Positions 39,856-61,563 of a stretch of 64,000 bases of DNA are shown here, piece by piece (positions within the stretch are counted from its first letter, which is position 1; each line of letters opens with the position of its first letter). The stretch spans positions 5,106 to 69,105 of the forward strand of contig CAZSVM010000014.1 of NCBI GenBank assembly GCA_964610315.1, given 5' to 3'. A program made the position numbers and the translations under genes. This DNA is from an uncultured Actinomycetota bacterium. GTDB lineage: Bacteria; Actinomycetota; Humimicrobiia; Humimicrobiales; Humimicrobiaceae. Below the pieces are notes generated by a model. The model searched no databases and was not told the DNA's origin. It worked only from the letters and a program-made list of their open reading frames with translations.

Positions 39856-41496
39856 ATGAAAAAAGCAGCCATTTATTGCCGTGTTTCAACAGCGCTCCAA
39901 GAACAAGAAAAAACAATTGATTCTCAGCTAGCAGAATTAAGAGAAACTTGTAAGGATTTACAGATTTTTAAAGAGTATATAGATAACGGATGGAGCGGAG
40001 AAACGCTTGATCGTCCGGCACTAGACCAGTTAAGAAACGATGCCAAAGAAGGTTTATTTGATGTCGTCTATATTCATTCGGTTGACAGATTGTCAAGAAA
40101 CCTTTATCAGCAAGGTATTTTGGTTGAAGAATTGAAGAAAAGAGGAGTGGAAATCCTTATTAGTGGCAAACCAATAGCAGATACTCCCGAGGGAAGATTC
40201 ATGTTCAATGTTCTCGGTGCTGCAGCAGAATTTGAAAAAGAAAAGATTCTGGAAAGGACAAAAAGGGGAAGGCTTTTTAAGGCTAAGCAGAAAGGGATTG
40301 TAGGTACACTGCCTCCATTCGGTTATAACTATATTAAGAAAGATGCATTAAGAGAAGGCTATTATAAAGTAAGTAAAAAAGAGGCAGAAATTGTAAGTCT
40401 AATATTTGATCTCTATATTGAACATTGTAGTTTAAAAAAAGTTATAAAAGAACTAGCTTTAATGAAAATCAGAACAAGAAAGAGAAGAGAGATTTGGGGA
40501 ACTAGTGTAGTAGCAAAAATTTTAAGAAGAGAAGACTACATAGGAATAGGTTATTATAGAAAAACTTATAGCGTTGAAATAAACAATGGAAAAAGATATA
40601 GAAAAGTAGTTAAAGAAGGACGAAGATTAAGAGACAGGAAAGAATGGATTCCTATCAAGTTTCCACCAATTATAGATCAAGAAAAGTTTAGATTTGTCCA
40701 GGAGATACTGTCAAAAAAATATAAGCCTTTTGGAAACAGCAAGCACTTTTATTTATTAAGTGGATTAGTAAAATGCGCTAATTGCAACTCACCTTTAGCA
40801 GGAGATACAACCATGGGCCATTCTTATTACAGATGTAATAACAGGCATAGAAATTTTCCTTTTCCTAGAGATTGTAACGCAAAAATGGTAAAGAAAGATA
40901 AATTAGAGAACGCAATTTGGAGCACATTTGTGAAAGCCATAAGCAATCCTCAGATAATTATTAGACATGTTTTGGATTCGTATTACAAAACAAATAAAAA
41001 TAGACCGGAATTAAGCAAAGAAAAAAAGATTCTATTAAGAAAAAAAGAAAATTTGGATGGAAAAACAGACAGACTGCTAGAAATTTATACTGATGGCATT
41101 ATTAGTAAGAAACAATTTTCTGAAAAAAGCATTAAATTTGAACAGATAAAGATAGAGATAGATAAAAGATTAAAAGAGATTGATGAACAATTAAATAAAT
41201 CCACCAGCAGACCACTAATCACCAAGGATATTAAATATTTTTGTAATTTAGCGAAGACAAGATTAAATACCCTTAAACTTAAAGAGAGACAAATATTCTT
41301 AAGGTATTTAATAAAAAAGATATTATTTGATTCAAATAAAAAATCTGCCAAAGTAATTGGGCAGATCCCCGTTGAGATTTCGGATATACAACAAATATTT
41401 CCTCCCTATAATGTTGGGACACTTTCCTTACTTTCTCAAAATTATGGAATGTGTCCCAGAAAATATATTAGATTTCAACTAGAGGTGACAGTTTAG
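39856..41496 (+). CDS. Large serine recombinase (resolvase catalytic domain + recombinase domain + zinc ribbon/coiled coil)
   Basis: AAIYCRVSTALQ (catalytic Ser), VDRLSRN, C-x2-C..C zinc ribbon (CANCNSPL..YYRCNN) and a Lys/Glu-rich coiled coil. Confidence 0.9.
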   Translation: MKKAAIYCRVSTALQEQEKTIDSQLAELRETCKDLQIFKEYIDNGWSGETLDRPALDQLRNDAKEGLFDVVYIHSVDRLSRNLYQQGILVEELKKRGVEILISGKPIADTPEGRFMFNVLGAAAEFEKEKILERTKRGRLFKAKQKGIVGTLPPFGYNYIKKDALREGYYKVSKKEAEIVSLIFDLYIEHCSLKKVIKELALMKIRTRKRREIWGTSVVAKILRREDYIGIGYYRKTYSVEINNGKRYRKVVKEGRRLRDRKEWIPIKFPPIIDQEKFRFVQEILSKKYKPFGNSKHFYLLSGLVKCANCNSPLAGDTTMGHSYYRCNNRHRNFPFPRDCNAKMVKKDKLENAIWSTFVKAISNPQIIIRHVLDSYYKTNKNRPELSKEKKILLRKKENLDGKTDRLLEIYTDGIISKKQFSEKSIKFEQIKIEIDKRLKEIDEQLNKSTSRPLITKDIKYFCNLAKTRLNTLKLKERQIFLRYLIKKILFDSNKKSAKVIGQIPVEISDIQQIFPPYNVGTLSLLSQNYGMCPRKYIRFQLEVTV

Positions 41497-41537
41497 TAAA
41501 AAAATCCCCCCGTGAAGGGGACTTCTGGTTTGGCTCG
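41435..41537 (+). repeat. Array repeat R1 (= 3' end of recombinase CDS + terminator hairpin)
   Basis: ctcaaaattatggaatgtgtcccagaaaatatattagatttcaactagaggtgacagtttag + a7-TCCCC-ccgtgaa-GGGGA-cttctggtttggc. Confidence 0.85.
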
Positions 41538-41630
41538 CTCTGGTGGACAATTTTAGAACCTTAAAGTGGGAGGAAGTGTTTAAATATCCAACAGTATCTC
41601 TTCAACAAGCCAAACAATTACTTGCTATAA

Positions 41631-42164
41631 CTAACTTAAAAATCCTCTTACTTGTCCATCGGACACTATATTTTTTAGTTCAGTTAGATATTGTTGACAC
41701 AAAGTAGGGATATCTTCGGTCCCGGACCAATCATCAAATTTATATTTATGAGTTACTTCGGGCGGTATTTCTTCTTTAATTTTTGGTGGTTCGGGCCCTG
41801 ATTGACATTCCTCAATTATATTACCATTTTTATCTCTCTTTATAATTTTTATAGATTCAGATACTCTCAATGTTTCTCTTATTAGGATATTTACATCTTT
41901 TCTTACTTTAACAGGCTCTGTATGTATATTTAGGTCTCTTTTATCTTTAAAAAATGATACTACAGTGCTATCTCTAATTACTGAATCATACCATTGCCTA
42001 CCATTTGATTTATTTTTGGCTTCTTTTAGCGCGAACTGTAAAACGGAACGTGCAGCAGCTAGAAAAGCGCTCAAATTATATTTAAAAACATTTGAATTCT
42101 CTTCGGTTTTCAGCATTTGATTATAAAAGTATTCAGCCTCTTTAATTTTTTCTATCTCATGCAT
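41631..42164 (-). CDS. HEPN-motif protein (177 aa)
   Basis: R-x4-H in KDKRDLNIHTEP; helical N-half. Confidence 0.4.
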   Translation of the reverse strand: MHEIEKIKEAEYFYNQMLKTEENSNVFKYNLSAFLAAARSVLQFALKEAKNKSNGRQWYDSVIRDSTVVSFFKDKRDLNIHTEPVKVRKDVNILIRETLRVSESIKIIKRDKNGNIIEECQSGPEPPKIKEEIPPEVTHKYKFDDWSGTEDIPTLCQQYLTELKNIVSDGQVRGFLS

Positions 42165-42263
42165 TTTTTAATTTTTTGCCTCCTTAGCAAAGCTTATTAT
42201 AATTCTGGAGAATAGAGATTATATAGCAATTATGAAGGAGAGATTATTGGGAATTAAAGAAGC

Positions 42264-42914
42264 CTATAAAGCCCTAAGATTGACTTCTATAACTGTATCT
42301 TTTATCCTATTAACAATTTCTATGATTAGTTCTCTCCAATCTTCAATCTGATGAAAATTAACTGGTAGTTTATCACCGATTTGAGCTATTGAATTTTCGC
42401 CCCTTGCATCCTTAAAAGCTTCCAACCAAAGTATATCAACCTTTGAATTGTTGTGAATAAAGCAATTTCTAGTTTCCTTCGCCAACTTCAATTCTTTAAT
42501 TTTATCTTCGGTCATTTTAGTTTGAAAATTTTGGTAGGGGCTCTCCCCTAAAAGAAATTTTTTTAGATTTTCAAATTTATCTGCTCTTATTTCTTGTCCG
42601 CTACATACAATAGGGCATAATTCAGCTACCAATTCTTCAAGCAACGAAAAAAGTGTTTGTAAATAGCCTAATGTAAATTCATTATCTTTTGATTTAAGAA
42701 TCTCGCAAAGTTTTTGAGGTGTGTATTCTTGAAACCCCCTCTTTGAAGCAGGTAAACCGAGTTTTAATGGTTTGTTCCATAAATTAGTGTTTTTGAATTT
42801 TGGTTCAAGCCAATAGAAAACACACCCCCACGATGCCATATAGAGTGCTTTCCATTCATCTTCACTTTCTAGTATTCTCTGTATTATATTATTAACTTTT
42901 TCTGGAATTTCCAT
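42264..42914 (-). CDS. HEPN-motif protein (216 aa)
   Basis: R-x4-H in AKETRNCFIHNNS near the C-terminal third. Confidence 0.45.
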   Translation of the reverse strand: MEIPEKVNNIIQRILESEDEWKALYMASWGCVFYWLEPKFKNTNLWNKPLKLGLPASKRGFQEYTPQKLCEILKSKDNEFTLGYLQTLFSLLEELVAELCPIVCSGQEIRADKFENLKKFLLGESPYQNFQTKMTEDKIKELKLAKETRNCFIHNNSKVDILWLEAFKDARGENSIAQIGDKLPVNFHQIEDWRELIIEIVNRIKDTVIEVNLRAL

Positions 42915-42938
42915 AATTGTCCAGCGATGGGCTTTTTC

Positions 42939-43547
42939 CTAATTTTTTTGTTTCATAATTATATCGCCTAATTTCCATAATATAAAATCAAGCATTTTTA
43001 CATCAACAATATCCACTTTCAACCTTTCTTTAAAATCTTTAATAATCTTTTTTACCTCTTGGTCTTTAAGAATCTTACTAAACCTCTCTTTAAGTAAATT
43101 ATATTGTACTAATCTATCATCTATTTTTTCTTTGATACCTTTAATATTATAATTTAATTTAATATTAAAAATTTTAGCTATTCTACTGTCATAAATAGGT
43201 TTATTATTATCCACTGTATGAATTAACTTAGAGGCGAAACTTAATAATATTGCCGGTTTCCCATTCAGTCTTGGAATTTCAGATAATTCAACGAGAATAT
43301 TTTTCAGATTTGTTTCTCTTTTTTGCAACAATTCAAAATATCTATCAATTAGTCTTTGTCCAAGACCCCCTGCGTTTAAGACGTAAAATCTTCTATAAGT
43401 TCTTTTAAACTCTTCATTATTTACTACGTTATTAACAGTTTTAAACTCGGTTGAAAGATAACTATAATCTTCAAAGGACTTTTTATCTTCAGATAACTTA
43501 TTAAAAATCTCTTCTCTATATTCTTTAATTAAATTTATTACTTCCAT
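42939..43547 (-). CDS. Hypothetical protein (202 aa)
   Basis: Co-directional and 24 nt upstream of the HEPN gene. No motif recognised. Confidence 0.4.
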   Translation of the reverse strand: MEVINLIKEYREEIFNKLSEDKKSFEDYSYLSTEFKTVNNVVNNEEFKRTYRRFYVLNAGGLGQRLIDRYFELLQKRETNLKNILVELSEIPRLNGKPAILLSFASKLIHTVDNNKPIYDSRIAKIFNIKLNYNIKGIKEKIDDRLVQYNLLKERFSKILKDQEVKKIIKDFKERLKVDIVDVKMLDFILWKLGDIIMKQKN

Positions 43548-43636
43548 CTAAATATTCTGTCTAAAATTAATTATTTTAATATAGACTAAAATAGAATTGT
43601 AATTATTGCTTATTTAAAACTTAAGGGGAAACTAGA

Positions 43637-43975
43637 TCAGATTCTTTTTATTTTTATGTAATTTTTGATTCTGTTACGATCTTCACTCTCTTTTTCGCCC
43701 TTAAAATATAATTGTATAAACTCAATCATATGCTTACTTTCACAATAAGCATAAATAATTCGCATTGAAGAGCCTTTTAAATAACGACAAAAAAGACGGC
43801 CTTTTATAATTTTGACCGTTTCTTTTGCTATTAGGACTACAAAATGTTTGCTAATGCCAAGTGGAAATTTTGAAACAACTTTTTTAAATTCAAGTAAATC
43901 ATCAGCTAATGACTTATACTTCTTTGACAATCGTTTGAAATCTTTGGAGAAGTCGTCGGTCTCATTAAAGTTCAT
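43637..43975 (-). CDS. RelE/ParE-superfamily (Gp49/HigB-like) toxin
   Basis: 112 aa. DFKRLSKKYKSL..KIIKGRLF..GSSMRIIYAY..IEFIQLYFKGEKE pattern. Overlaps the antitoxin stop by 11 nt. Confidence 0.6.
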   Translation of the reverse strand: MNFNETDDFSKDFKRLSKKYKSLADDLLEFKKVVSKFPLGISKHFVVLIAKETVKIIKGRLFCRYLKGSSMRIIYAYCESKHMIEFIQLYFKGEKESEDRNRIKNYIKIKRI

Positions 43976-44753
43976 CTTCGTAATCTCTTACAGAATGATC
44001 CGTGTCGCGGTAAAATACGCTTTCATAGCTGATAATCTCACCATATTTATGAACTCGCCACGGTACATCGCTGTGAGAATATTCTGTTAATTCATTGGCA
44101 TTTTTATCTGAAAGACGAGCAAGTACATCATCTACGTGCTTCACTTCTCGTGCAGACAATCTTCTTAAATCAGATTCTCGGCGTGGTAGATATTTTTTTT
44201 GATCATACTGAAAATATTTGCTTTTAACTCTCTCTATTTCACCTTTATCTTCCATCTCCTCAACAATTTTTTTAAATTCCACCGGTGTTGGCCCGTAATG
44301 ATTTTTAACATACCGCGCGCCAGTTAGTTGTTCTTCAAACTTCTCATAAAAGTCGAAATCTATAAAATAAAGTAGTTTATATAAAGCAGTTTCCCCAATA
44401 TTTGGTTTTGCCCCCACTTTTTCTAAAATATACAACAAAACTTCCTTGAATTTTATAATATCAGCACGTGGAATAATAACACGGATTCCTGTCTTTTTTG
44501 ATCTTTTTTGTATCTTTTCTTTTTCTAAAATAATCTTTGCCTCTGAAGCTTTTTCCGGCAATAAAAGATTCTCCAGCCGCATACTAAAAATACTCGCAAG
44601 TTTTTTTGCCTCAGATATAGTTAATTCTCGTTCTCCTTTTTCTATCTGCATGTAGGTAGGTCTGGACATTCCTAATTCTTTAGCGATGTATTCCTGTGAA
44701 AAGCTGTTTTCCTTCCTCAACAGTTTAATTTTTTTATATAAATCTTTAACCAT
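43965..44753 (-). CDS. XRE-HTH + DUF4065 (Panacea/SocA-like) antitoxin
   Basis: N-terminal FSQEYIAKELGMSRPTYMQIEKGER. The central LYKLLYFIDFDFYEKFEEQLTGARYVKNHYGPTP matches the PanA/DUF4065 signature. Confidence 0.7.
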   Translation of the reverse strand: MVKDLYKKIKLLRKENSFSQEYIAKELGMSRPTYMQIEKGERELTISEAKKLASIFSMRLENLLLPEKASEAKIILEKEKIQKRSKKTGIRVIIPRADIIKFKEVLLYILEKVGAKPNIGETALYKLLYFIDFDFYEKFEEQLTGARYVKNHYGPTPVEFKKIVEEMEDKGEIERVKSKYFQYDQKKYLPRRESDLRRLSAREVKHVDDVLARLSDKNANELTEYSHSDVPWRVHKYGEIISYESVFYRDTDHSVRDYEDEL

Positions 44754-44761
44754 TTGTTTTA

Positions 44762-44789
44762 ATTATAGTATGTAAAAAAATCTTGTCAA
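44762..44789 (-). promoter_or_regulatory. Sigma70-type promoter of the antitoxin-toxin operon (near-leaderless)
   Basis: Minus strand: TTGACA - 16 nt - TATAAT, then only 8 nt to the ATG at 44753. Confidence 0.6.
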
Positions 44790-44807
44790 GTGGATAAGTA
44801 GAAATAC

Positions 44808-44835
44808 TTGACATAATAATGCATTTTGTTACAAT
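44808..44835 (+). promoter_or_regulatory. Divergent sigma70-type promoter toward the DUF2188-like gene
   Basis: TTGACA - 16 nt - TACAAT. Its -35 is the right arm of the 8-bp dyad TGTCAAGT/ACTTGACA (44784-91 / 44806-13). Confidence 0.5.
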
Positions 44836-44972
44836 GTCTATGGAGCTCAAATACAAAACGGGGCCTCGTCGAACCCCATTTGTAAATGTGCCAAGTTAAT
44901 ATTCTAAACATATTAACCTTTAATTACAAAACAACACATTCTAAGTTTATAGGTTAAAAACAATAAAACACT

Positions 44973-45218
44973 ATGAATAAGCTAACAAAATATACTTTAG
45001 GGTATAACGAACATAAGGAAAAATGGGTGCTTAAGAAGGACAAAACTAATCAAACCATTAAGACCTTTGACACTAAAGAACAAGCAACAGCTGGTGGTGT
45101 ATTAAAAAAGGTTCTTGGGGAAAATGGTGGATCAGTAAAAATTAAAAAACTTAACGAGAAATACCAGGAAGAACGCACCTATCCCCGTAAAAAGGACCCA
45201 AAAAAATCCAAAGGATAA
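44973..45218 (+). CDS. DUF2188-like small protein
   Basis: 81 aa; ..KWVLKKDKTNQTIKTFDTKEQA.. pattern and a basic C-tail. Confidence 0.45.
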   Translation: MNKLTKYTLGYNEHKEKWVLKKDKTNQTIKTFDTKEQATAGGVLKKVLGENGGSVKIKKLNEKYQEERTYPRKKDPKKSKG

Positions 45219-45234
45219 TTAGATTGCAAAAAAA

Positions 45235-45262
45235 ATGGAAAGGATTTACTTTCCATTTTTAT
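45235..45262 (+). terminator. Intrinsic terminator
   Basis: ATGGAAAGgatttaCTTTCCATttttt. Confidence 0.8.
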
Positions 45263-45390
45263 TTTTAACCAAACATACCAATTATTTAATTGTCTATGAG
45301 TTTTTACCTTGCCCTAAAGTCGTATGGTATTGAACAAAGTTAGAACCTAGATTACAAATACAAAAGAGCACCTTGGGATACCGGTCTTAA

Positions 45391-45500
45391 CTCAAAATCA
45401 TGGAATGTGTCCCAGATATTACTTGGAATTTCAGCTAGAAGTGAAGGTTTAATAAAAATAAAAACTCCCCCGACAGGGGGGGGGGGCTTTGTTTGGCCCC
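45391..45500 (+). repeat. Array repeat R2
   Basis: ctcaaaatcatggaatgtgtcccagatattacttggaatttcagctagaagtgaaggtttaa, then a C5/G11 hairpin and ctttgtttggc. A partial extra unit follows at 45508-45580. Confidence 0.85.
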
Positions 45501-45609
45501 ATATTCGCATTGAATAAAGGCCGAAACTAGATTATAAGCGCAAAAGGGGATTTTGAGATGACGTTTTTAACTCAGCTTTAAGTTACACCCAACTTGCTAC
45601 TCATTATTT

Positions 45610-48600
45610 CTAATAGAAATTTAACCCAATTGTATCTAGACCTTTAATCTTACTGTAACTGTTTTTAATTTTGTTTAGTTTATTATTGTCTACTCTGGCA
45701 TTATTAATAACAAGCAAAATCCCATAGTCAACACTAAACCCCTTCATATATCTCTGGAGACTTTTAAAAGATCCTTTGTTTTCCAAATTATTTCCTTTTA
45801 AATCTGGATGACTTGATAATTTTAGCTCAAGGAGTATCTGTCCAATAAATCCATAATTTATTAAAAAATCCACCCTTTTGCTATCTAACTTTTGTGGTTC
45901 TCTGTAGATCTGAAAATCGAGTCCTCGTTTGAGGAATTTATTCTCTAAAGCAAGTTGAATATTAGGTTGGATCTCAGGCTCCTTTTTATTTCTGATTATT
46001 TTGCTTCCCCCCTCGTTTTCAATCCAGTTCTTTAAGTCTTCATTTATGATTTTTTTAACATTATCAAACAGCTCTTCTGGAGTACCTATCGAAAGGTATT
46101 GTCTTGATTTTGTTTCATTGAAGGATTTTATGGCACTATTAATATTACTTGGTCTACCAATATAAACAAGATAAGAACGTTTCAGTTGTTTTAATTCTCC
46201 TTTAAACCAATTAGAATAATCTGAATGTATATTATTCTGTAAAAAATTTTCGAGTTGTTTAATCGCTTCATACGATCTTGTGTATTTTAAACCATCGAAG
46301 TATTTAAACACGATTCGCCATAAGTATTGAACGTAATTCCAATATCGTTCATTCTTATTTATCTTTTTAAAAGAAAAATCAATGAGATCAAGAAATTTCT
46401 TTATATAAGACATATCTTTTAGCTCCATCAATGAATTTGCAAATCTCTTCTCGTGTAATTCATTCTCTTGAGGACCAACTGAATGTACGCCTATTGGTTC
46501 TTCGAATTCAAAGATCCGTTTCTTTAATTGAGTAAATCGCCAGCTGATCGCTTTTTCATCTTTATAATTTTCAATCAACAGTTGATTTGCAGTTTCTGAA
46601 AGCTGGAAAGATTCATCTTTTCTTTTTTTATATTCTTTAAAAATTTTCTCTAATAATTTTTTATCAGGTTTTAACGATTCCATCAGTTTCAAACTTTCTA
46701 TTCGATTATAAACAGACAGTGTTTCCTCTTTTACAAATTCCTCAATAATACGAAGCGTTTCTTCCAGTTCGTATTCTTTAACGAATTCAATGAAACTTTC
46801 CGGTTGGAATAATCTTAGATCTGAATTGCTCTTGTATATAGCTAAGACATATTTTAATTCTTCCGTTTTTACATTTTTAATCAGTTTAAAAATGGCTTTA
46901 CGCTCTTCATAATATGCAAATGGAATAAAATTAATAATCTTTTGTCTATATTTTGAAATATCTATCTTTAATAAGGAGGCTAGCTTTATACAATCTGCAA
47001 AAATTGGATTCCAAGAATGCCAGGTAAAACTTGTATTATTACTATCTCTTCTGTTTATCTTGAATATTTTATATCCATCCTTGGGATCGAATTTCTCAAA
47101 AATTGATCTGGTCATTAAATTAATGATTCTCTTTCTCTCTATCTCTGTGATTTTTTTCTCAAGAATTTCTTTATTATCAATATAAAATCTAAATATACCT
47201 GGATCATATTTTCCTTTTCCGGGCTCCAGTCTTAATTGAAATTCCTTATAGACTGTTTCTTCTTTGGATTCGGATTGCTGTAATCTTTCTTTCCGAGCAA
47301 ATTTCTCAGATTCTTCATATTCTCTCCTTAAATACTTTCTCCCCTCTTCGTAAATTTCTTCTTTCAGTTTTCTATTAGAAAATTTAATTTGTTGAAGAGT
47401 CCATAAAGCTAATCTCTTACTTCTTTGGGTTTCTGATAATTCATTTATAAATCTCTCGACTTGATTCTTCTCAAGAACTGCCGCAAATACATTTTGGAAA
47501 CTAAAAATACTAGTTTTAAGCTCATCTGAACTCTTAATTCTTGAAATTAAGTTAAAAAGAAAGTTTGAGTCATACTCTTTAAGTAAAAGAGTCAACCTTT
47601 CGATGAAATTTGATCTCTCAACATAGTATGAATATTTTGATTCAAAAGCCTTTATTAGAATGTCAAAAGCAAGTTTGGCAATTTCTTCATCTAAAACAAC
47701 TTTGATATTCTGATTAATTTTTTCGTCTTTTTCTCTAAAAATGCTTTCCTTATCAAGAAAATGTTGAAGGAATAAGGTATCATTTTTTAAGGAATTTAAG
47801 AGCCTTTTTATTCCTTCTTTATTGTTAATTTCCCATATCCCATAGCGAGCTTCAAGGAAATCCCGTTTAGTACCCTCAACAAAATATTTTATCGATGGTT
47901 CACAGTTAGGATCTATTCTATAACAAAATCTCAAAAAAGCTCTTTGAACAAGTTCATCTTTATGTCTCCAAGTATTTTCTACTTTTTTAATCAATAGAGG
48001 GTCTTTAAACTCGCTCAGAGCATATAAGGAGAGTCTTTGGAGCACACCATTTTCATTTTCACTATTAGCAAACCTAATGAGTTTCTTTTTCCAATATTGT
48101 TGATCGTCTACAGCTAAGCTTTTGTTTTTTAGTAAGAAATGAACAATTAATGCCATATTTCCTTCTTTTACAAACAATCTCTGTCCATTTTCCCTGGTAT
48201 CAACCCATGACTTAAGAAAATCCGAAAGCGTATTATCATAAAAATAACTCAGTCCTTCTGCTATATCCCAATCTAGCCATAGTTCTTCTCTCACTTGATA
48301 GTGGGTTAGAATTTCTTTAAATATTGTTATTCTTGTTTCCTTATTTACTTTCTCATAATTTAATTTGAGTAATAGCTTGCTATATTCATCATCAATTACT
48401 AACTTAGTCTTTTTAAATCCAAAACGTAAAATTTTATCTAACAAATCTGGCTTTTGCTCTAATAAAAAGCTCAATGTGTTAAACCAACTCGGATGTATTT
48501 CTTGAAGTTCCTTATCTACCACAATATCATAGAGGGTTTTTTCTAATCTCCCCATGCGTAGAAGCTCTTTTGACGCTAAATATTCCTGAAACTCTGGATT

Positions 48601-51981: not shown

Positions 51982-52014
51982 AGTTTAATATATAATAAGT
52001 TTAAAATAAAAACA

Positions 52015-52034: not shown

Positions 52035-52087
52035 GATTAAATTTTCCTTAGCTTCAGGTTAAATTTCGATGTAATACAAAATTAATC

Positions 52088-52519: not shown

Positions 52520-52535
52520 TTAATTCTTTGAGTCC

Positions 52536-52859: not shown

Positions 52860-52901
52860 GTAATCGCATCATAAAGCACCAAAATGATACTTGTCAAGTA
52901 T

Positions 52902-53001
52902 TTCAAAGTCATGGAATATGTCCCAGAAAATATGTTAGGTTTCAGTTGGAAGTGACGGTTTAGTAAAAAAATCCCCCTATAAAGGGGATTTCCGGTTTAG
53001 C
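52902..53001 (+). repeat. Array repeat R4
   Basis: ttcaaagtcatggaatatgtcccagaaaatatgttaggtttcagttggaagtgacggtttag + a7-ATCCCC-ctataaa-GGGGAT-ttccggtttagc. Confidence 0.85.
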
Positions 53002-53103
53002 TACATGTGTGTAGTGAATAGAGTTCGAATCTAGTCCGGGTAATTCATATGATTTTTATTTACTTTGTTAAGATAAAATATCTTGCATTAAGTTGGTGGA
53101 AAA

Positions 53104-53610: not shown

Positions 53611-53614
53611 AAAC

Positions 53615-54481: not shown

Positions 54482-54593
54482 GCTATCAGATTAACTGGAT
54501 CCCTTGTTCCAGTCAATCAATTTTTTTTGTTTATTCTTATTAAAAACATCTCCCCAAATGTAGTATATCTGGGTATAAACTAATCAACTATAA

Positions 54594-56360
54594 CTAGGAT
54601 CTGAAAATATTTATTGTATCCTCTTTACTATACGGCGTTCCAAATTTTATGTGATATTTGATATTGTTTCTCTCACAAAACTCCATTACCTTCTTTGCCA
54701 TTCTCCTATAAAAATCTTCACTGTTCTCCCACCCTGGAGGACAATTGTTACCATAATAAGTCAGCCTTCGATAATTTAACTTACCAAAAATAATTTTCTT
54801 AACAAACTTAATTTTTTCTAAAACTTTCTCAATATTTTCTGCATTCGGGTCATATTCTGGTATAGGATAAGGCTCCATGCTTATCCAAGTTTTTAAACCA
54901 GCTTTGGCGAGCCTCTTGAGAGATTCTATCCTTTTCTTGTAAGGTGCTGAGAATGGTTCAAATTTTTGTTTAAATTTATCATCTAAAGATACAAGCGTAA
55001 TTCCATATTCATTATTTTGTAAAAATCTTTTTCTATTTAAGATTTCTTCAGGGTAAAAACCTTTTGTTAAGGTTGTTACTCTTATTTCTTCTTTATTCAG
55101 TGTCTCAATAATCTTAAGGGTTAGCTCTTTTATTTCAGGAATCAAATCTCCTTCCTCAAAATCATACATAAAAGGATCTGACATAAAACAAAGGTGAACA
55201 AAATCTATCTCGTTTTTGTATTTAGGTATCTCTGTTTCTAAAAGTTGTAAAGCATTTCTTGCAACCCTAGGTCTTCTCCAGTCAGAATAGTTTTTAACCC
55301 ATCCAAATTTCTGAGCCATTCTAAATGCGTAGCAAGGGAAATTACAACCGTGCATGCACCCTATGATGTGGTTTATTGTCCAATCGCCGTACTCTACTTT
55401 GGTTTTATAGAGAAGTGATTTTCTATAAATTCTCTTAATCTTAGATGGAATAAATAAAATATTTTGTAAATAAAACTCTCTACCAAACAAGGTGGGACCT
55501 AGAGTATTTTCTTTCTCCTCAGCGTAAATACCTTTTACTATCTTATCTGTAAATGTCTCATTTTTTGAGGCAAATAAAAGATAGTAAATGATATCTCTCC
55601 TAGCTGGATACTGCATATCAAAACCTGCTACATTATATCCGTTTTTGACAAATAAAGTTTTTATATAATCACTAAGTAAACCTAAATCTTTTTTTGTTTT
55701 ATAATCTACATCTTTACCTAGAAATTCTTCTAAGGTACTGACTGTTTTTATCTCTTTCGGTATTGAAGACTCTTTTACTGCTATTCCCCGTGTTCTAGTT
55801 TCACCTTCCTTACTGTAATTAAAAAAAATGTCAATGGGATTATTCAGGTTTAGATAGCTTTTAATGGTTTTTTTATGAATATTAATACCCCAAGGATCAA
55901 TACAAAGAAATATTGGGTGTTTTGGAGTATTTTGTATCTCTTTGAGTATTCCTGGACTTACTTTATTACAATCCTCATTTAAAAATTTAACTTTAACAAT
56001 ATCCTCTATTTCAGGATGATTTTTTATAAGCTGAGAAGCTTCCTTCTCTAACTCAATTTTGTATTTTTTGGCAATCTCAATAAAAAATAATTTAATTTTA
56101 ACATTATTTTTCTTTAATTTTCCTTCTTGTTTTATAATCTCCTCAAGAAAAATAAGAGGCGAACCACTGACTTTTTTCTTTTCATCTTTGTACCATCCTC
56201 TACCAGCGAATAAATCTAAGACGTACCATTCTTTACTAACCCACTTTTGTTGATTAGGCCCATTCCATATAGTAAGCCATATATCAAAAATCTTCCGAAG
56301 CATTCGAAGCTTGGTTCTAGTATGCGGTCTTTTTACAATATCCCATGCATCTTTAATCAT
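54594..56360 (-). CDS. Fusion protein: TcmP-like N-half + three-Cys radical-SAM-like C-half
   Basis: The N-half carries HTRTKLRMLRKIFDIWLTI, LFAGRGWY and CIDPWG. The C-half carries INHIIGCMHGCNFPCYAF and NNEYGITLVSL..FEPFSAPYKKRIESLKRLAKAGLKTWISMEPYP, closely matching ORFs 50005-51099 and 51136-51981. Confidence 0.75.
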   Translation of the reverse strand: MIKDAWDIVKRPHTRTKLRMLRKIFDIWLTIWNGPNQQKWVSKEWYVLDLFAGRGWYKDEKKKVSGSPLIFLEEIIKQEGKLKKNNVKIKLFFIEIAKKYKIELEKEASQLIKNHPEIEDIVKVKFLNEDCNKVSPGILKEIQNTPKHPIFLCIDPWGINIHKKTIKSYLNLNNPIDIFFNYSKEGETRTRGIAVKESSIPKEIKTVSTLEEFLGKDVDYKTKKDLGLLSDYIKTLFVKNGYNVAGFDMQYPARRDIIYYLLFASKNETFTDKIVKGIYAEEKENTLGPTLFGREFYLQNILFIPSKIKRIYRKSLLYKTKVEYGDWTINHIIGCMHGCNFPCYAFRMAQKFGWVKNYSDWRRPRVARNALQLLETEIPKYKNEIDFVHLCFMSDPFMYDFEEGDLIPEIKELTLKIIETLNKEEIRVTTLTKGFYPEEILNRKRFLQNNEYGITLVSLDDKFKQKFEPFSAPYKKRIESLKRLAKAGLKTWISMEPYPIPEYDPNAENIEKVLEKIKFVKKIIFGKLNYRRLTYYGNNCPPGWENSEDFYRRMAKKVMEFCERNNIKYHIKFGTPYSKEDTINIFRS

Positions 56361-56547
56361 AATTTTAATGTTTTATTTCAGTATACAATTTTTCTCTTCG
56401 TTTTATTTATTCTAACAAAGAATCGCTTTAGTGGCGATAAATAAAAACCACCCAGCGATGGGCTTTTTATTTATAGATACTATACCAGAACTATAAAATT
56501 TATCAGAAATTAAAAGGTTTTACTTAAACTTTGGGTATTCTTTGATA

Positions 56548-56649
56548 TTCAAACTCATGGAATGTGTCCCAGAAAATATATTAGATTTCAATTGGAAGTT
56601 ACGGTGTAGCAAAAAAATCCCCCCATAAAGGGGATTTCTGGTTTGGCTC
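56548..56649 (+). repeat. Array repeat R5
   Basis: ttcaaactcatggaatgtgtcccagaaaatatattagatttcaattggaagttacggtgtag + a7-ATCCCC-ccataaa-GGGGAT-ttctggtttggc. Confidence 0.85.
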
Positions 56650-56654
56650 AGAAT

Positions 56655-57203
56655 TTAATATTCGATCTGTAATTTCTCAATTTTATTTTTGTAGGTTATG
56701 TATTTATGTGAAAATCCTTTTTTACTAATTCTGAACTTCATCTTCCTTGCAAAATCCGGGAATCTTCTAATGCCACCTAACAAATCAAAGTAGGTTAAAA
56801 AATAAGCCAGAGCAGCTTCACAATCATATGTATTTAAACTGGTTGCTAATATAATTACTCCTGGTGACTTAGATAAGGGAAATTTTCTGTCGTTCCAGAA
56901 GTCATTGTCGTTGGTCAAGATTAAGTAATTCTTTCTTGAACAATAATCATAGATATCAGAATCTTCACGAGACGAATATTTAATTTCTTCAAAGGCTTTA
57001 AACTTAGGGAAATCAATTAACTCATTTTTCAACATCTGTGATAGATTCCTATCTAAAAAAATTCCAACCTTGCGTTTTGGAGGATTCCATGCAATCCAAT
57101 TTTTTTTAAACCATTTATCAAACCCTGGATCTTCTTTTCTGAGAGAATTTAAATATTCATTAAACTTCATTACTTCACTTAATATTAGGTAATCACCACT
57201 CAC
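56655..57203 (-). CDS. PIN-like (DUF5615/Mut7-C-type) domain protein
   Basis: IFLDRNLSQML..DSDIYDYCSRKNYLILTNDNDFWN..SPGVIILA follows the DUF5615 pattern. GTG start; an alternative ATG lies at 57170. Confidence 0.45.
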   Translation of the reverse strand: MSGDYLILSEVMKFNEYLNSLRKEDPGFDKWFKKNWIAWNPPKRKVGIFLDRNLSQMLKNELIDFPKFKAFEEIKYSSREDSDIYDYCSRKNYLILTNDNDFWNDRKFPLSKSPGVIILATSLNTYDCEAALAYFLTYFDLLGGIRRFPDFARKMKFRISKKGFSHKYITYKNKIEKLQIEY

Positions 57204-57318
57204 CGATGGGGGCTAAGAATTCAAAACATATTACACGGCCATCAACCGCCTCTCTTATTAATTCCTTACTTTGCTTCTTTAGGTCTGATTTCTCATTATC
57301 CTCACGAAGCTTTCCCAT
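57193..57318 (-). CDS. Possible 41-aa partner ORF of the PIN-like gene
   Basis: AAGGAG lies 10 nt before the ATG. It reads MGKLREDNEKSDLKKQSKELIREAVDGRVICFEFLAPIGEW and overlaps the PIN start by 11 nt. It is too short for the ORF track. Confidence 0.25.
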   Translation of the reverse strand: MGKLREDNEKSDLKKQSKELIREAVDGRVICFEFLAPIGEW

Positions 57319-57357
57319 AAATTTTATTGCTCCTTAGAAAATCTAAATTTCGTGATT

Positions 57358-58023
57358 TTAAAGGATTACTAATTCATTCAGCATTTCGGACTCTTCATCC
57401 TTCCAAATTCCAGACCATATAATTTTAAACTTCCCACTAATTTTTTCTGCGTTTTTACTGTAAATTACTACTTCAATTTGATATTTCCCTGGAATTAAGC
57501 AATCCCATTGTGCATAAAATCGTTCTGGAAGCTCAAAGAAAAATTTATTTTCCCTTTTTTCCTCTTCACTTATACCTTTATATACAGACCCTTGCTCATG
57601 GTTCGGATGGTGAATTCGGCCTATATCGCAAAAAATTTCTCTACCCGGCTGTATCGTAAGATATTTTAGCATTTGAGTACCGGACCATTTAAGTGAAACT
57701 GGTGAAAATCCAGTAAATTCCTTAAATTTCCCAGCACTATTTTCCTTCCAAATTTTTTCAAGCACAGCCTCGCATTGTTCGGCTTGAACCTTACCATTGT
57801 TTACAACTTTAAACCTAAAATAATAAACAGGGAAGTACACTCCTGCTTCCCTCATTTGTGTAATATGACAGTACGGAGGTGTATGATAAAACTTAAAAGC
57901 TAATTTTGCTGAATAAAATCTATATTTCCATCTTTCAATAACATAAGGTGCCAAAAAAGCTACGCTGGCCAAAAGAAGCGTTGTGCCAATTAAAACCCAT
58001 TCGCTAATTTGCATTTCTTGCAT
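57358..58023 (-). CDS. Membrane-anchored hypothetical protein (221 aa)
   Basis: One N-terminal TM helix (WVLIGTTLLLASVAFLAPYVI). No motif recognised. Confidence 0.4.
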   Translation of the reverse strand: MQEMQISEWVLIGTTLLLASVAFLAPYVIERWKYRFYSAKLAFKFYHTPPYCHITQMREAGVYFPVYYFRFKVVNNGKVQAEQCEAVLEKIWKENSAGKFKEFTGFSPVSLKWSGTQMLKYLTIQPGREIFCDIGRIHHPNHEQGSVYKGISEEEKRENKFFFELPERFYAQWDCLIPGKYQIEVVIYSKNAEKISGKFKIIWSGIWKDEESEMLNELVIL

Positions 58024-58113
58024 ATTTTTATTCTTTATTAAAATCTTCTACAATTTTAATCTCTCCAGTTTAAGCCTTTGAGGTTTATAAACTAATGATT
58101 TCCTTATCGCCGA

Positions 58114-61100
58114 CTAAATTAATTCCTTCTCAATTTTAGGATATATTTTATCTATTTCTCTTTGTAAATAAATGGTCCAATTTAAAACAGTGGTAACTTT
58201 TAGAAAATGATTGACTTCATCATTAGATAAAACCATATTAGTTCTATCTTTTAACCATTTATCTAAGACTTGATAGCCGCCTATATAATAATTCCAAACA
58301 TCGGGCGCTACTGTACCAAAATACTGCCTCTCATTGATATAAATCCGTCCTGCATTTTCCCTATATCCTCGTTGTCTAACTCTATTATCGCCAACAACTG
58401 GATATGTCACCCTAGTATCTTCTAATTTGTCTGATTTTAATAAATGGAGGTTTACTAATTCACTGCCTAACCCCGCTATTTTGTTGAAAAGATTAATATT
58501 CTTAATAAATGGTACTCTTGGAAAATCAATCTTTAAAAATTCATCATATTTTTCGCGATAAATATTAGAGTACAAAATTGCATAAATATAATTAAAAATT
58601 TTCCATGGATCAATCGTTTCAATAAAACCTCCTTTTATCTTTTTCCAAAACTCTGGAGAAAAATTTTCTTGTTGAATATTGCTTTTACCAAACAAATTAT
58701 TTTCATTATCCAAATAAAGAAAGAGTGGGAAAATATATGCACTTTCTTTTGTTTGTAATGATAATAAGCAAATATCCGACGCGAACTGGGAAATAAAGCT
58801 GTGTTTAAATGAAAATGTTGAGAGCTGTTTAGTTGTAATAAGTGCTAAGTTATCTTCGCTTAATTTCCAGATATTTTCGTTACGTGATCTTTCTATTAAG
58901 CTTTTATCATAATAAATCCAACGTACATCAAACGGTCTATAATAGTATTTTTTAAATAATTCATCTTTAATTTCATTTCTTTTAAATTTTTCTCGAGCTT
59001 CGCGCATTTTCCAAGTACTAGTATCTTTTAAATTATAAGTTGATGTTAGTGTTTGATCATCTAGATTATCATCGCTGAACATCATTAATTTTCTTTTTAA
59101 TCCTTCTTTTGAATAATCTAAAATAAAATTATCTCTGTGGGTTTTTACTCCGCTTGAAAACTCTTTAAAAATATCTTTGAAAGAAATAAATTTATCATAT
59201 ACTTTTTCACCTTTTGTATCTTTCAGAATAAAGAAATAATTTGGTTCTCTTAATTTCAACTTCTCCCACTTTGTATTTTGAATATTATGTTCCTCGAGAA
59301 ATTTATACTTTTCGTCTCTTAAGCCGTAAAGATCAGCATATCTTATTACTTGTTGTTTTTTCTCTCCTGTTTTTACTAACAAAATAATTCCCACGCCCTG
59401 CTGAATATCAAAAACGTTTTCATCTTTTCCTCCCGTTGGCGTCTTTTCTTTTCTTTTGTAGTTTCCGTGTAGATTTAAAATATAGATTTCATCAAAGTCT
59501 TTAGTCAATTTTTGACGCATATCTCTATGGATTAAACCATCAAGATAAGAATTATTTGTAATCATTCCCACGATCCCCTGGCCGGTTTGTTTTATTTTCC
59601 AATGGGCAAAGGCAATAAATTTAATATAGTCATCAGAAAGAGGTTGAATATTTCTTTCTTCTTTTCTAACTTTTTCTTTATAGCTTTCATAGAGGTCATT
59701 AAAATCTGATCCTTCTTTTATAATATTCGAAGAACTAACAGAGTACGGCGGATTTCCCATAACTACTAAAATCGGCACATCTTTTTTAACCTTCATTGCT
59801 TTTCGTGCTTCTTCAGAAAGGCTAGCAACATATGGTAGTGTTGCCTGCTCTATATCTGATAAATCAAGCGTATTAGTTAGATAAAGGGGAAACCTATCAC
59901 TGTTCTCTAAGTCATAACCCAAATCCTCTAAAAGTAAGGAAACTTTAAGATGACCAATGATATAGGGAGCCATTAGAAGTTCAAAGGCATAATAATCCTT
60001 AAGAACGTGATTTTTGACAACTTGAAGCCAAGAGCCAGCATTAGGACTTCTATCTATTTCCTCTTTAGCAATCAAAATGGACTTTGCCGGGAAAGTTAGA
60101 GTGCCGGAAGCAGGATCTAAAATGATCACATTTTTATCAGCAAAGCCAGCCTTTCTGCCGAATTTTTCTTTAAGTAAAATATTGACTGAACGAGTAATAT
60201 AAGAAACAACAGGCAAGGGAGTATAAAAAATACCCCTATGTTTTTTCTCTTTGGGGTTATATTCCTTCAAAAAGGTTTCATAAAAATGAATCAAAGGATC
60301 ATCTCCACCTGTCCTTTTATGTAACTCCTCTTTGATTTTCTCGATGTCAGCGTAAGCTAAAATTGTTGCAATATCGTCAACAGCCCAACTAATTGATTCA
60401 GGTAAATTGGAGCCAGAAATTAAAGAGAAGGTATCCTTTAAAATCTGGATGTTCTTAGGAATATATTTCTGGGCTAAAAAACGATCAAATCCTTTTTCTT
60501 TATGGCGAAGTCTCGCCATAAATAATCCATAGGTAATTGTTTGAGCATAAATGTCAGCAAAATCTTTTTTGGTCAAGTCTGTAATTAAGTACTTTTTAAA
60601 TGCTTTATATATTCTGTCTATCTCAGTTTCAACATTATTATTTAATTCTCCGACAATACATGCAGGTATTAATTTCGCTCTAGAAGCAAGCTCAATAGCT
60701 AAAGTCTTAGCACTTTTCCTTTCAGGGATATTAAAATTTAAAAACACCTCTATTAAATTGAGAAAATCTCTTTCGTTTTTTAAAGGCGGTAATTGATTCG
60801 CTTTAAGAAAATTTAACTCTCCAACACTTATTCTGGTCTTAAGAATCCATTTTTTCTCACTTTTCCTCCAAAGCCAAAAGTCAAAATAATTAGTTAGAAT
60901 AAAATTATCGAAATCCTTTTTATATCTCTCAATCTGAAGAGTATGTTCAAAAAGCCCTAAATCTTTCCCAATGTCTTTTGCCTCTATATAACCAACTAAC
61001 TCTTTACTTCTTCGAATGGTAAAATCAGGCACTCCAGCCTCTATACGTTTTGGCTGAATGGTAATATTAGTAGTAATTCCTTTTGATCTAGAAAATTCTT

Positions 61101-61194
61101 CAATAAGATTTTTAAGATCAGGATAAAAACTGGGCTCGGTAGTATCGCCAGTTTTAAAAGTTTTTAATATATTTTTAAAATACTTATTGAGCAT
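58114..61194 (-). CDS. Single-chain Type IIG/IIL (MmeI-like) restriction endonuclease / N6-adenine DNA methyltransferase
   Basis: N-terminal PD..ExK (VPDFTIRRSKELVGYIEAKD). Gamma-class MTase motifs GIFYTP, ILDPASGTLTF and MGNPPYS. The C-terminal ..IGGYQVLDKWLKDR.. resembles Type ISP/YeeA specificity domains. Confidence 0.8.
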   Translation of the reverse strand: MLNKYFKNILKTFKTGDTTEPSFYPDLKNLIEEFSRSKGITTNITIQPKRIEAGVPDFTIRRSKELVGYIEAKDIGKDLGLFEHTLQIERYKKDFDNFILTNYFDFWLWRKSEKKWILKTRISVGELNFLKANQLPPLKNERDFLNLIEVFLNFNIPERKSAKTLAIELASRAKLIPACIVGELNNNVETEIDRIYKAFKKYLITDLTKKDFADIYAQTITYGLFMARLRHKEKGFDRFLAQKYIPKNIQILKDTFSLISGSNLPESISWAVDDIATILAYADIEKIKEELHKRTGGDDPLIHFYETFLKEYNPKEKKHRGIFYTPLPVVSYITRSVNILLKEKFGRKAGFADKNVIILDPASGTLTFPAKSILIAKEEIDRSPNAGSWLQVVKNHVLKDYYAFELLMAPYIIGHLKVSLLLEDLGYDLENSDRFPLYLTNTLDLSDIEQATLPYVASLSEEARKAMKVKKDVPILVVMGNPPYSVSSSNIIKEGSDFNDLYESYKEKVRKEERNIQPLSDDYIKFIAFAHWKIKQTGQGIVGMITNNSYLDGLIHRDMRQKLTKDFDEIYILNLHGNYKRKEKTPTGGKDENVFDIQQGVGIILLVKTGEKKQQVIRYADLYGLRDEKYKFLEEHNIQNTKWEKLKLREPNYFFILKDTKGEKVYDKFISFKDIFKEFSSGVKTHRDNFILDYSKEGLKRKLMMFSDDNLDDQTLTSTYNLKDTSTWKMREAREKFKRNEIKDELFKKYYYRPFDVRWIYYDKSLIERSRNENIWKLSEDNLALITTKQLSTFSFKHSFISQFASDICLLSLQTKESAYIFPLFLYLDNENNLFGKSNIQQENFSPEFWKKIKGGFIETIDPWKIFNYIYAILYSNIYREKYDEFLKIDFPRVPFIKNINLFNKIAGLGSELVNLHLLKSDKLEDTRVTYPVVGDNRVRQRGYRENAGRIYINERQYFGTVAPDVWNYYIGGYQVLDKWLKDRTNMVLSNDEVNHFLKVTTVLNWTIYLQREIDKIYPKIEKELI

Positions 61195-61385
61195 ATTTAT
61201 TTTTTTCTGTTTAGTCTTTTTATCATTTGAATTCTCTTTTTAAAATTTATTATTCTCTCCAATCAAGAAAACATAAAAGTAATCTTTCTATGTTCTATCT
61301 TTTATAATACTTTTCAATTATAACAAGAGATTGATTAAATAAAAATTGCCCCGCGAAGGGCTTGTTTTTTTCTTATACTGTAGCA
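61195..61385 (-). promoter_or_regulatory. Conserved promoter/leader module, copy B (upstream of the RM gene)
   Basis: Aligns with 49612-49790. TGTTATAAT is the complement of 61317-25; the GCCC-cgcgaa-GGGC hairpin lies at 61348-61. Confidence 0.55.
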
Positions 61386-61563
61386 ATGATTTAAAGTAAA
61401 ATAGCTGGAGTCCTTCTTTTAAAAATTATTTATAATTTGATAAAAGGATATACTAATATCGTTTCTCCTCTCACTGGATAAAATTCGAATATAGATTATG
61501 AGTAATATGGTAGATTTTTTTATGTCTCCATTCAAGAATTACGTAGGATTTCTTAGATAAAAG

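Follow-up and report, generated by a model that had tools for sequence, protein, structure and literature searches.

Copies of a large serine recombinase gene's 3' end bound recombinase-less segments with defence genes: a candidate cassette array in an uncultured Actinomycetota bacterium

The recombinase gene and the five copies of its 3' end

A 64,000-nucleotide stretch of contig CAZSVM010000014.1 (the window, to which all positions refer unless another locus is named) from an uncultured Actinomycetota bacterium encodes a large serine recombinase (LSR). The 3' end of the LSR gene recurs downstream, between segments most of which carry recognisable defence genes. The tail copies are called R1-R5, the arms to the left of their central TC X2-X5, and the right arms with their tails P'1-P'5. 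The gene and the copies are as follows.

39856..41496, + strand: LSR, 546 aa, with Resolvase, Recombinase and Zn-ribbon domains, a long coiled coil and a C-terminal extension of ~50 aa (Pfam, PDB sequence matches, AlphaFold model)
41415..41458, + strand: core of the attachment-site (attP) type in the LSR 3' end, TGGGACAC-13 nt-TC-13 nt-GTGTCCCA, central TC at 41436-41437 (direct reading, inverted-repeat scan)
41436..41540, + strand: R1, candidate right half-site P'1, with 19-codon tail, stop, bidirectional terminator and TTCTGGTTTGGCTC; the present C-terminus of the LSR (repeat finding, MAFFT, nhmmer, terminator scan)
45392..45503, + strand: R2, X2-TC-P'2 junction with orphan tail QNHGMCPRYYLEFQLEVKV and a terminator with a poly-G run (repeat finding, nhmmer)
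49854..49950, + strand: R3, orphan tail QSHGMCPKNYIKFQLEVRV, the downstream region unrelated to that of the other copies (repeat finding, nhmmer)
52903..53007, + strand: R4, orphan tail QSHGICPRKYVRFQLEVTV, terminator and conserved 14-mer (repeat finding, pattern search, nhmmer)
56549..56653, + strand: R5, orphan tail QTHGMCPRKYIRFQLEVTV and terminator, closest to R1 at the protein level (repeat finding, pattern search, nhmmer)

By its domain content, the protein is classed as a large serine recombinase (serine integrase). A resolvase domain with the serine nucleophile spans residues 4-145 (PF00239, E=1.8e-35), and Y7, R9, V10 and S11 were invariant in an alignment of 42 sequences. The PDB sequence matches included the catalytic domains of TP901-1 integrase and gamma-delta resolvase. 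The Recombinase and zinc-ribbon domains (PF07508, PF13408) carry an inserted coiled coil, and the C-terminal domain of A118 integrase aligned over residues 269-495. The AlphaFold model, built with 42 homologues, had a mean pLDDT of 79.5 and placed long helices at 383-472. In this model, residues 519-532, which are encoded by much of the att core, are disordered, and residues 537-545 (IRFQLEVTV) form a confident terminal beta-strand following the strands at 486-505. The nearest annotated relatives were the sr1 recombinases of phage WO (32% identity) and SPbeta-type LSRs, in a range of 28-32%. Since the alignments to the WO relatives and to solved LSR structures end near residue 490-495, the last ~50 residues are a family-specific extension.

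The first-pass annotation of this DNA had proposed that the end of the recombinase gene is reiterated five times in direct orientation, each copy keeping an in-frame stop and nearly the same 19-aa tail. Both points were borne out. Repeat finding, MAFFT alignment, mismatch-tolerant pattern searches and an nhmmer profile gave exactly five direct copies of the last 19 LSR codons, the stop and the following region, starting at 41436, 45392, 49854, 52903 and 56549, where the chance expectation in the pattern searches was 0 and 0.25 matches. The 19-codon frame was open in every copy, with the stop at the same position and the peptides as annotated. The terminator that was said to recur with the tails was found after four of them: an A-run, a G+C hairpin and a T-rich stretch follow R1, R2, R4 and R5, but R3 has only a weak A/T hairpin. 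The terminator scan scored the hairpin as strong on the minus strand and weaker on the plus strand. The R2 terminator holds a run of 11 G (45465-45486), a possible hotspot for slipped-strand or assembly errors.

We considered whether the unit could be a generic repeat unrelated to the recombinase, of the repetitive extragenic palindrome (REP) or miniature inverted-repeat transposable element (MITE) kind, or a reused terminator. Hairpin terminators of like build do occur elsewhere in the surrounding island (repeat families D5 and D8), but 57 nt of the unit are LSR coding sequence that runs in frame into the stop. In addition, REP and MITE repeats are scattered in both orientations, whereas all five copies are direct and lie within 15 kb downstream of the LSR. 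Neither the pattern searches nor nhmmer found a sixth copy in the other ~43 kb of the window, so the scatter of the ~100-bp unit away from any recombinase that the first-pass annotation had named as counter-evidence was not seen there. An exact-pattern scan of IMG/VR found no match to the core. We therefore regard a generic repeat as very improbable.

The left boundary of the copies coincides with the centre of a dyad. Positions 41415-41458 form a perfect 8+8 dyad, as expected of a short (~40-50 bp) att site with a central dinucleotide; this dyad, and not the previously suggested CCAGAAAAT..ATTTCAATTGG, is the relevant one. All four orphan copies begin at TC, the exact centre of the R1 dyad. 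The five copies agree fully in the central TC and in the right-arm GTCCCA with its spacing. Leftward of TC, the orphan copies no longer resemble the LSR gene, and X2, X3 and X5 keep only TTGGG(A/T), which lies 3-4 nt nearer the centre than in R1. The weak upstream similarity of ~30 nt described before thus comes down to this half-site motif in three arms and does not extend to X4, where the promoter scan found a near-consensus match (TTGACA-18-TATGAT) pointing into cassette 3. In X3 and X5 the TTGGGT is out of the LSR reading frame, which indicates that it is kept as DNA and not as a coding relic.

The tails themselves appear to have been kept as protein. Over the five copies, pN/pS was 0.30 in frame and 0.87 and 1.45 in the two wrong frames, so the formal test agrees with the earlier proposal that the copies diverged under coding constraint. 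The first nine codons, which form the right arm, had 2/2/2 variable columns by codon position, and the last ten codons had 3/2/9. This substitution pattern, together with the predicted terminal strand, suggests that each orphan tail evolved as a working LSR C-terminus. The tails differ from each other by 13-23% in a star-like pattern. The tail of the 84%-identical homologue P0002 is nearer to R2 (15/19) than to R1 (12/19).

A direct repeat of ~37 nt (TTGAAyAAAG..GAAmCTAGATTAyAA..CAAAAG) lies on both sides of R2 (45331-45367 and 45510-45546). The ~30-nt motif noted earlier is convincing as this flanking pair, but its other copies, after R1 (41549-41566), after R4 (53013-53035) and at the right end of the island (61472-61500), are weak. 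Some copies hold GTTCGAATC or ATTCGAAT, reminiscent of a tRNA T-loop, and in two related loci the tail is followed by GGGTTCGAGTC...CCACCA (L250) and GGGATTCGAATCC (L163). A tRNA remnant with GTTCGAATC-like loops was rejected because ARAGORN and Rfam gave no match.

Cassettes between the copies

The copies delimit four intervals and a distal segment, which are listed below.

41541..45391, - strand: cassette 1 with the X2 arm (~45367-45391); HTH-Panacea (SocA-like antitoxin-like) protein, 112-aa partner and three unknown proteins (Pfam; PADLOC weak only)
45504..49853, - strand: cassette 2; 1333-aa NACHT/STAND NTPase (real start ~49611) and right-end module 49661-49853 with X3 arm TTGGGTATTCTTTGATAT (Pfam, PADLOC)
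49951..52902, + strand: cassette 3; PDC-M30A-like protein (GMT-wHTH), radical-SAM partner, two small minus-strand genes and X4 arm (PADLOC 8e-72, Pfam, promoter scan)
53008..56548, - strand: cassette 4; CBASS-type cyclase, 2TM/SLATT effector and fused PDC-M30A-like::radical-SAM protein (588 aa), right-end module 56398-56548 with X5 (PADLOC 2e-101 and 6e-65)
56654..61457, - strand: distal segment; DUF5615 protein, unknown protein and type IIG / Type ISP restriction-modification enzyme (Pfam, PADLOC; repeats D3 and D6; orthologue in L250)

Each interval had been described as carrying immunity-type modules. Recognisable defence genes were found in four of the five (NACHT, PDC-M30-like, CBASS and type IIG restriction-modification), but cassette 1, with its HTH-Panacea protein and unknowns, fits only loosely. 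The cassettes measure 3-4.5 kb and are mostly transcribed convergently, from promoters of their own. Cassettes 3 (50005-51981) and 4 (54594-56360) are paralogous, with two genes in one and a single fused gene in the other; identity is 55% between the radical-SAM halves and 27% between the N-terminal ones.

The intervals had also been said to contain no recombinase, and this held in all searches. Pfam found neither a recombinase nor a transposase in them. With 120 LSR homologues as queries, tblastn found no LSR fragments in the intervals and matched only residues 528-546. Homologues of the element backbone were also absent from the cassettes.

A common right-end module, made up of a hairpin behind a promoter-like stretch, then ~80 nt and the X arm, recurs three times. 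It closes cassettes 2 and 4, and a truncated form (61204 to ~61457, aligned by eye, with the repeated sequence at 61204-61404) closes the distal segment. X3 and X5, with ~110 nt upstream, are 82-85% identical, and the X5 arm is identical to X3 at 34 of 40 positions. The P'3-P'5 pair is no more similar than any other pair of tails, and the regions downstream of the two are unrelated. These comparisons indicate that the sequences left and right of TC have different genealogies, which is the expectation if site-specific exchange brought the two sides together.

This module does not belong to the defence genes, as evidenced by homologues of the NACHT and Type ISP genes, which lose similarity within 10-50 nt of the open reading frame (ORF). 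The NACHT homologues in L261 and L262 are 79-85% identical at the nucleotide level, and the homology is confined to the gene, ending at 49600 and 49661. R-like flanks were sought around these two genes and not found; both genes lie in other islands, and the LSR near the L261 gene is unrelated (27% identity). The Type ISP gene (58117-61248) has a 78%-identical orthologue in L250 (5928-9054), where it lies upstream of the LSR and not downstream. An identical NACHT protein is also present on a separate 9,825-nt Logan contig. In a cluster look-up, the cassette-3, cassette-4 and adenosine-deaminase proteins were each present on three contigs and the exact LSR sequence on one only; breaks in the assembly at the repeats, or variation among strains, may account for this distribution. 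Proteins at least 90% identical to the cassette-3 protein (P0249 and P0250) are encoded on contigs of 3.6-3.9 kb, and P0242, which falls in one 90% cluster with the LSR homologue P0002, on a 12,583-nt JGI contig.

The family attP and the surrounding island

The relatives of the LSR came from several sources. Broad LSR-profile scans of genome, metagenome and viral contigs gave mostly distant LSRs (25-35% identity) because the back-translated patterns were generic; of the loci retrieved, we could use only L001, L002, L012, L081 and L082. The closest homologues, up to 84% identical, came from metagenomes. The canonical tail, ...GQxPNxxLKFELEVKV, was present in 54 of 120 homologues, and the other full-length homologues mostly diverge or end close to a conserved GxxS motif, a short way upstream of the crossover.

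Three independent assemblies (L166, L167 and L168) show a relative in its integrated form. In these, a 59%-identical LSR lies at the right end of a ~6.8-kb element that splits comM. The LSR has a non-canonical, comM-derived end, ...SMSWKV*, and the canonical tail lies at the left end of the element. TGGAAAG is common to the hybrid sites attL and attR. When the LSR body was joined to the sequence at the left end, ...SWKDHIQWSTNYLKFELEVKV was restored, which places the family crossover at the codon position matching the TC of the window. Recombination of attP with the chromosomal site attB to give hybrid attL and attR was therefore reconstructed for this relative only. The reconstruction and the C-terminus classes of the 120 homologues also indicate that the attP lies inside the integrase ORF and that integration alters the C-terminus. 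The non-canonical ends WKV*, WNL* and ...NLCANQLKKAKLQF correspond to the comM motif LESLRQPIEEGKITI read one base out of frame, as reasoned from the genetic code, and at least 13 homologues match the patterns expected of out-of-frame comM. Integration into comM thus seems common in the LSR family.

The dyad is also found across the family. At least seven relatives (L163, L249, L252, L001, L251, L161 and L002) have one whose arms stand 30 nt apart, or 34 nt in L002, and whose centre lies 56-66 nt ahead of the stop; looser forms occur in L250 and L082. The arms differ between subfamilies yet stay complementary, that is, they covary. On these sequence comparisons, we identify the dyad as the attP of the LSR family, embedded in the gene. 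The first-pass annotation had named the recombinase gene itself as the target of the cassettes. Recombinase-less cassettes with replacement tails do stand at its 3' end, but the target is the family attP within the gene, which normally serves comM. The attP of the comM-integrating relative has an arm spacing of 22 nt and not 30 nt. For this reason we dropped the idea that the X arms, with their motif 3-4 nt nearer the centre, are of the attB type. The attB of A118 shows a 5-bp shift (PMC3783163).

Downstream of the LSR, the cargo differs between related elements, and in two of ~12 related loci an extra tail of another LSR subfamily is present. In L163, a degenerate P0047-type tail (13150-13185) follows a 1.5-kb segment with a 160-aa gene and HEPN/AbiV. 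In L165, a complete P0097-type dyad and tail (11721-11807) lies 14 nt after the LSR stop. These heterologous tails resemble relics of replaced LSRs and bear on a rival history of the array, in which sibling elements with LSRs of their own integrated serially and later lost backbone and LSR, leaving attL-like X-TC-P' scars in the manner of cis-mobilizable elements (CIMEs). The family is truly integrative, its tails land at the left ends of elements, and the star-like divergence of 13-23% looks as if the tails came from different donors. However, this history needs four independent deletions, each within ~25 nt of the crossover and each erasing all LSR coding sequence. Tandem whole elements would also predict an LSR to the right of each cargo, and none is there. 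Moreover, the X arms keep an out-of-frame DNA motif and not decayed codons, and the right-end module shared by cassettes 2 and 4 and the distal segment is not derived from an LSR. We consider decayed tandem accretion rather unlikely.

The window is chromosomal, as it encodes IF-2, PNPase, RNase J, RecD2, DprA, rpsB, ispG and a class II tRNA synthetase. The array lies in an island of odd composition that extends over ~27.3-61.5 kb. In the GC profile, G+C is 0.39-0.41 at 28-32 kb and 0.29-0.33 at 36-62 kb, and the host lineage has ~35% G+C. PNPase homologues place this host in an uncultivated Actinomycetota lineage close to Ca. Hydromicrobium and speak against Patescibacteria, which we had considered first. 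The following features lie upstream of the LSR.

26759..27265, - strand: C-terminal fragment of comM (Mg-chelatase-like) at the left edge of the island (Pfam Mg_chelatase and Mg_chelatase_C; tblastn with the L166 comM halves; GC profile)
34935..36621, - strand: element backbone with a second RuvC-like gene, an HTH_36 replication-initiator-like gene and an HTH_3 regulator (84.5% nucleotide identity to L250 1-1676; Pfam; PHROGs replication initiator)
39521..39748, + strand: 75-aa small ORF directly upstream of the LSR (77%, 68%, 55% and 40% aa identity to its equivalents in L250, L163, L165 and L166)

The comM fragment begins ~33 codons downstream of the attB position used by the related LSR, and the N-terminal part of comM was not found in the 64-kb window. 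The 75-aa ORF had no Pfam or PHROGs match; its position and conservation make it a candidate directionality factor or regulator. The backbone common to the window and L250 comprises two RuvC-like genes, HTH_36, HTH_3 and the 75-aa ORF, with proteins 76-85% identical. Despite this conserved backbone, the two LSRs are only 52% identical. The nucleotide similarity covers the first ~170 LSR codons and then ends, which indicates that the DNA-binding half of the LSR, the att site and everything downstream were exchanged as a block.

Cargo also varies upstream of the LSR, in a second region whose two breakpoints coincide in three elements (window 36622-39400, L250 1677-9551, L163 100-9549). It is bordered by conserved hairpin terminators and has no obvious att site. 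Its contents are small unknown genes in the window, RelA_SpoT and the Type ISP enzyme in L250, and ResIII, a methyltransferase and an SMC-like ATPase in L163.

That region fits a further rival, homologous recombination, in which the tail and terminator (60-105 nt) are the shared left flank of a cargo hotspot and were duplicated by single crossovers with circular or transformed DNA. Its uniform breakpoints and terminators favour such a route, as do defence genes such as NACHT and Type ISP, which move from one context to another as modules of one gene. On the other hand, 62-105 nt at 77-87% identity is a poor substrate. Donor homology should moreover extend leftward into the LSR gene, whereas all four copies end at the same base, the dyad centre, which is also the crossover position mapped independently for the family. 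Homologous recombination is thus an improbable source of the array.

Other mobility genes were seen in the window and in related loci. A TrwB/TraG-like coupling-protein gene recurs at 29882-31924 (-) in the window, from 20442 onward in L250, at 17631-18851 in L251 and at 7400-8752 in L261, with 37-40% aa identity, and hints that the elements may be mobilisable or conjugative. The sole tyrosine recombinase of the window (24218-25144) is Xer-like and lies beside rpsB, 15 kb from the LSR. Tyrosine integrases are also encoded in L252-L257 (the P0082 element), L161 (13648-14646) and L164 (20082-20972), where the LSR keeps its canonical tail. The L161 gene borders host housekeeping genes, and six near-identical ~21.5-kb P0082-type contigs from different samples all break inside the tyrosine integrase gene. 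These observations suggest that the tyrosine enzyme handles chromosomal integration in those relatives, and some relatives may thus have been inserted by an enzyme other than the LSR. We rejected the view that the ~21.5-kb contigs are circular episomes, given their break in the integrase gene and the lack of a terminal overlap in the related L164.

Proposed insertion of cassettes and comparison with known systems

We propose that circular cassettes without an LSR of their own were inserted by the LSR into its own attP, each restoring the tail, and we give this reading a probability of about 0.6. It builds on what the sequences show: how the sites are laid out, where the family crosses over, that the tails were constrained as coding sequence, that the two sides of TC are mosaic, that the intervals hold no LSR remnants and that the cargo is defensive. 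Two further points in its favour are the R2-like tail of P0002 and the heterologous extra tails in L163 and L165. For the window itself, we infer that this LSR was the catalyst and that the intermediates were circles, and likewise the sequence in which the cassettes came and any activity today.

The repeats would be recombination half-sites of the LSR. The family attP is a ~45-bp dyad ~60 nt before the stop, which encodes a disordered linker and precedes a nine-residue terminal beta-strand under protein selection. In the relatives, whole elements recombine there with attB in comM, so that the last ~20 codons are replaced and the canonical tail comes to lie at the far end. In the window, the attP may instead serve as a docking site for circular recombinase-less DNAs. 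Each circle would carry a hybrid X-TC-P', where X is a weak left arm with only TTGGG, and P' is a full right arm with a spare tail and terminator. Recombination of the circle with P-TC-P' would give LSR-P-TC-P'(new)-cargo-X-TC-P'(old). The LSR would regain an intact tail, the old tail would shift downstream, and the array would grow at its LSR-proximal end. Since the products have the same form as the substrates and the copies share TC in direct orientation, any two could recombine and release one or several cassettes as circles. With cargo that is mostly anti-phage defence, the array would act as an exchangeable defence library tied to one recombinase.

Several observations weigh against this proposal. 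First, a pairing of P-O-P' with X-O-P' is outside the attP x attB rule and is not carried out by the well-studied serine integrases (PMC3783163). Second, X4 lacks the TTGGG motif, and the array closes distally (61405-61457) with no X arm and without a sixth tail. Third, the close NACHT and Type ISP homologues elsewhere (L261, L262 and L250) have no flanking tail sites. In addition, nine other related elements, sampled over at most 10 kb and often less downstream of the LSR, are single-tailed, indicating that arrays are uncommon and that a five-copy array is unusual. Among the contigs covered, we saw no circular junction, no deletion variant and no polymorphism between strains. The coding constraint might also predate the array and have acted wholly in donor elements. 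Finally, the comM junction (27265) is ~33 codons off the expected attB and in the wrong orientation for the LSR of the window, which lies 12.6 kb from the comM fragment, on the opposite strand and with its attP intact. The insertion of the island itself is therefore not explained by this LSR as now arranged; judged from the sequence, the island is rearranged or was inserted by something else.

Some of these points also speak for a fossil array, in which LSR recombination once made the sites but no longer rearranges the array, the LSR being left with the integration and excision of whole elements or with no role at all. The missing motif in X4, the lost terminator of R3, the truncated distal end and the rearranged comM junction would all fit decay of this kind. 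Against it, the LSR is intact with all its domains, TC and the right arms are invariant in five copies, and the tails are open. We hold a static array to be unlikely.

If cassettes are inserted as proposed, the locus could be a serine-recombinase counterpart of the integron, in which one in-gene attP serves both integration into comM, with a switch of the C-terminus, and the capture and release of tail-bearing defence cassettes. We advance this wider reading tentatively, at somewhat less than even odds. It also takes in that the family occurs in uncultivated subsurface Actinomycetota, apparently in Patescibacteria and possibly in archaea, going by the labels of metagenome-assembled genomes only, and that the tail swap would be a built-in sensor of state, episomal or cassette-loaded versus chromosomally integrated.

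Should the LSR recombine these sites, this would be a third, independently evolved route to an exchangeable cassette array after integrons and the staphylococcal cassette chromosome (SCC), made with a one-protein, double-strand, cofactor-free recombinase. It would extend the pairing of serine integrases beyond attP x attB, with a bearing on directionality and on LSR engineering for repeated 'stacking' at one landing pad. The in-frame attP with a selectable terminal strand would offer a natural read-out of the recombination state, and the same bases would be a case of dual coding under protein and DNA-site constraints. It would also be a route for defence systems to move in poorly known lineages.

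The annotation's remark that this architecture appeared undescribed can be upheld provisionally, as our full-text literature searches found no description of an LSR with attP in its own 3' end or of tail-bearing cassette arrays. To judge from its genes and sites, the array belongs to none of the SCC, integron or Mx8-type systems: it has no rlmH and apparently no Ccr, no IntI or attC, and a serine and not a tyrosine enzyme.

CIMEs formed by tandem accretion are alike in being recombinase-less, att-bounded segments in tandem with an autonomous element and mobilisable in trans (PMC5704250). They are described as decay products of integrative and conjugative or integrative and mobilizable elements at a chromosomal attB, mostly with tyrosine recombinases (PMC5704250), whereas here the shared site lies in the recombinase gene, and no recombinase pseudogene or backbone was found between the sites.

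Phage WO sr1 recombinases integrate into the magnesium chelatase gene of Wolbachia (PMC9203015), a target like that of the comM-integrated relatives, and their core aligns to the LSR up to ~490. The ~50-aa C-terminal extension is absent from them, an in-gene attP is not reported, and tail arrays are not known for them.

Integrases with an in-gene site are known among tyrosine recombinases. In the SSV-type archaeal integrases, attP lies within the integrase coding sequence. We know of no cassette arrays or spare-tail copies for integrases of the Mx8 or SSV type. The intP of Mx8 also has attP within the integrase gene, and integration gives it a new 3' end (PMC6070905); as a tyrosine recombinase, it offers an analogy to the serine enzyme of the window and not membership of a common system.

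SCC and SCC-like elements form tandem defence cassettes at rlmH that are mobilised by Ccr (PMC11470126). They share with the window a large-serine-type recombinase, direct-repeat att sites that regenerate a gene end (here five in-frame tails with stops), and tandem cassettes that are mostly recombinase-less and rich in anti-phage genes; single or combined excision is expected, and a recombinase in one unit suffices (PMC11470126). In SCC, the docking gene is the housekeeping gene rlmH, whereas here it is the LSR's own gene, with no rlmH adjacent. The att repeats of Ccr measure ~15-20 bp, compared with the 60-105-nt unit of tail and terminator. The LSR is probably not a Ccr, going by its nearest annotated relatives, of the phage WO and SPbeta type (28-32%), and it has its family-specific C-terminal extension.

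Integrons are alike in having a recombinase beside an array that grows at its promoter-proximal end, with one site per cassette, circle excision and common defence cargo, and chromosomal integrons have been described as defence libraries (10.1101/2024.07.02.601686). The window likewise has recombinase-less cassettes beside a recombinase, as four bounded intervals and a distal segment. The enzymes and sites differ. IntI is a tyrosine recombinase that acts on folded single-stranded attC, whereas here a serine enzyme is paired with a double-stranded dyad site. The attI site lies upstream of intI, whereas here the site is inside the 3' coding end of the recombinase gene and the cassette sites consist of a right half and a tail. 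Integron cassettes are usually promoterless and rely on Pc, whereas the 3-4.5-kb cassettes of the window are mostly convergent and mostly carry promoters of their own.

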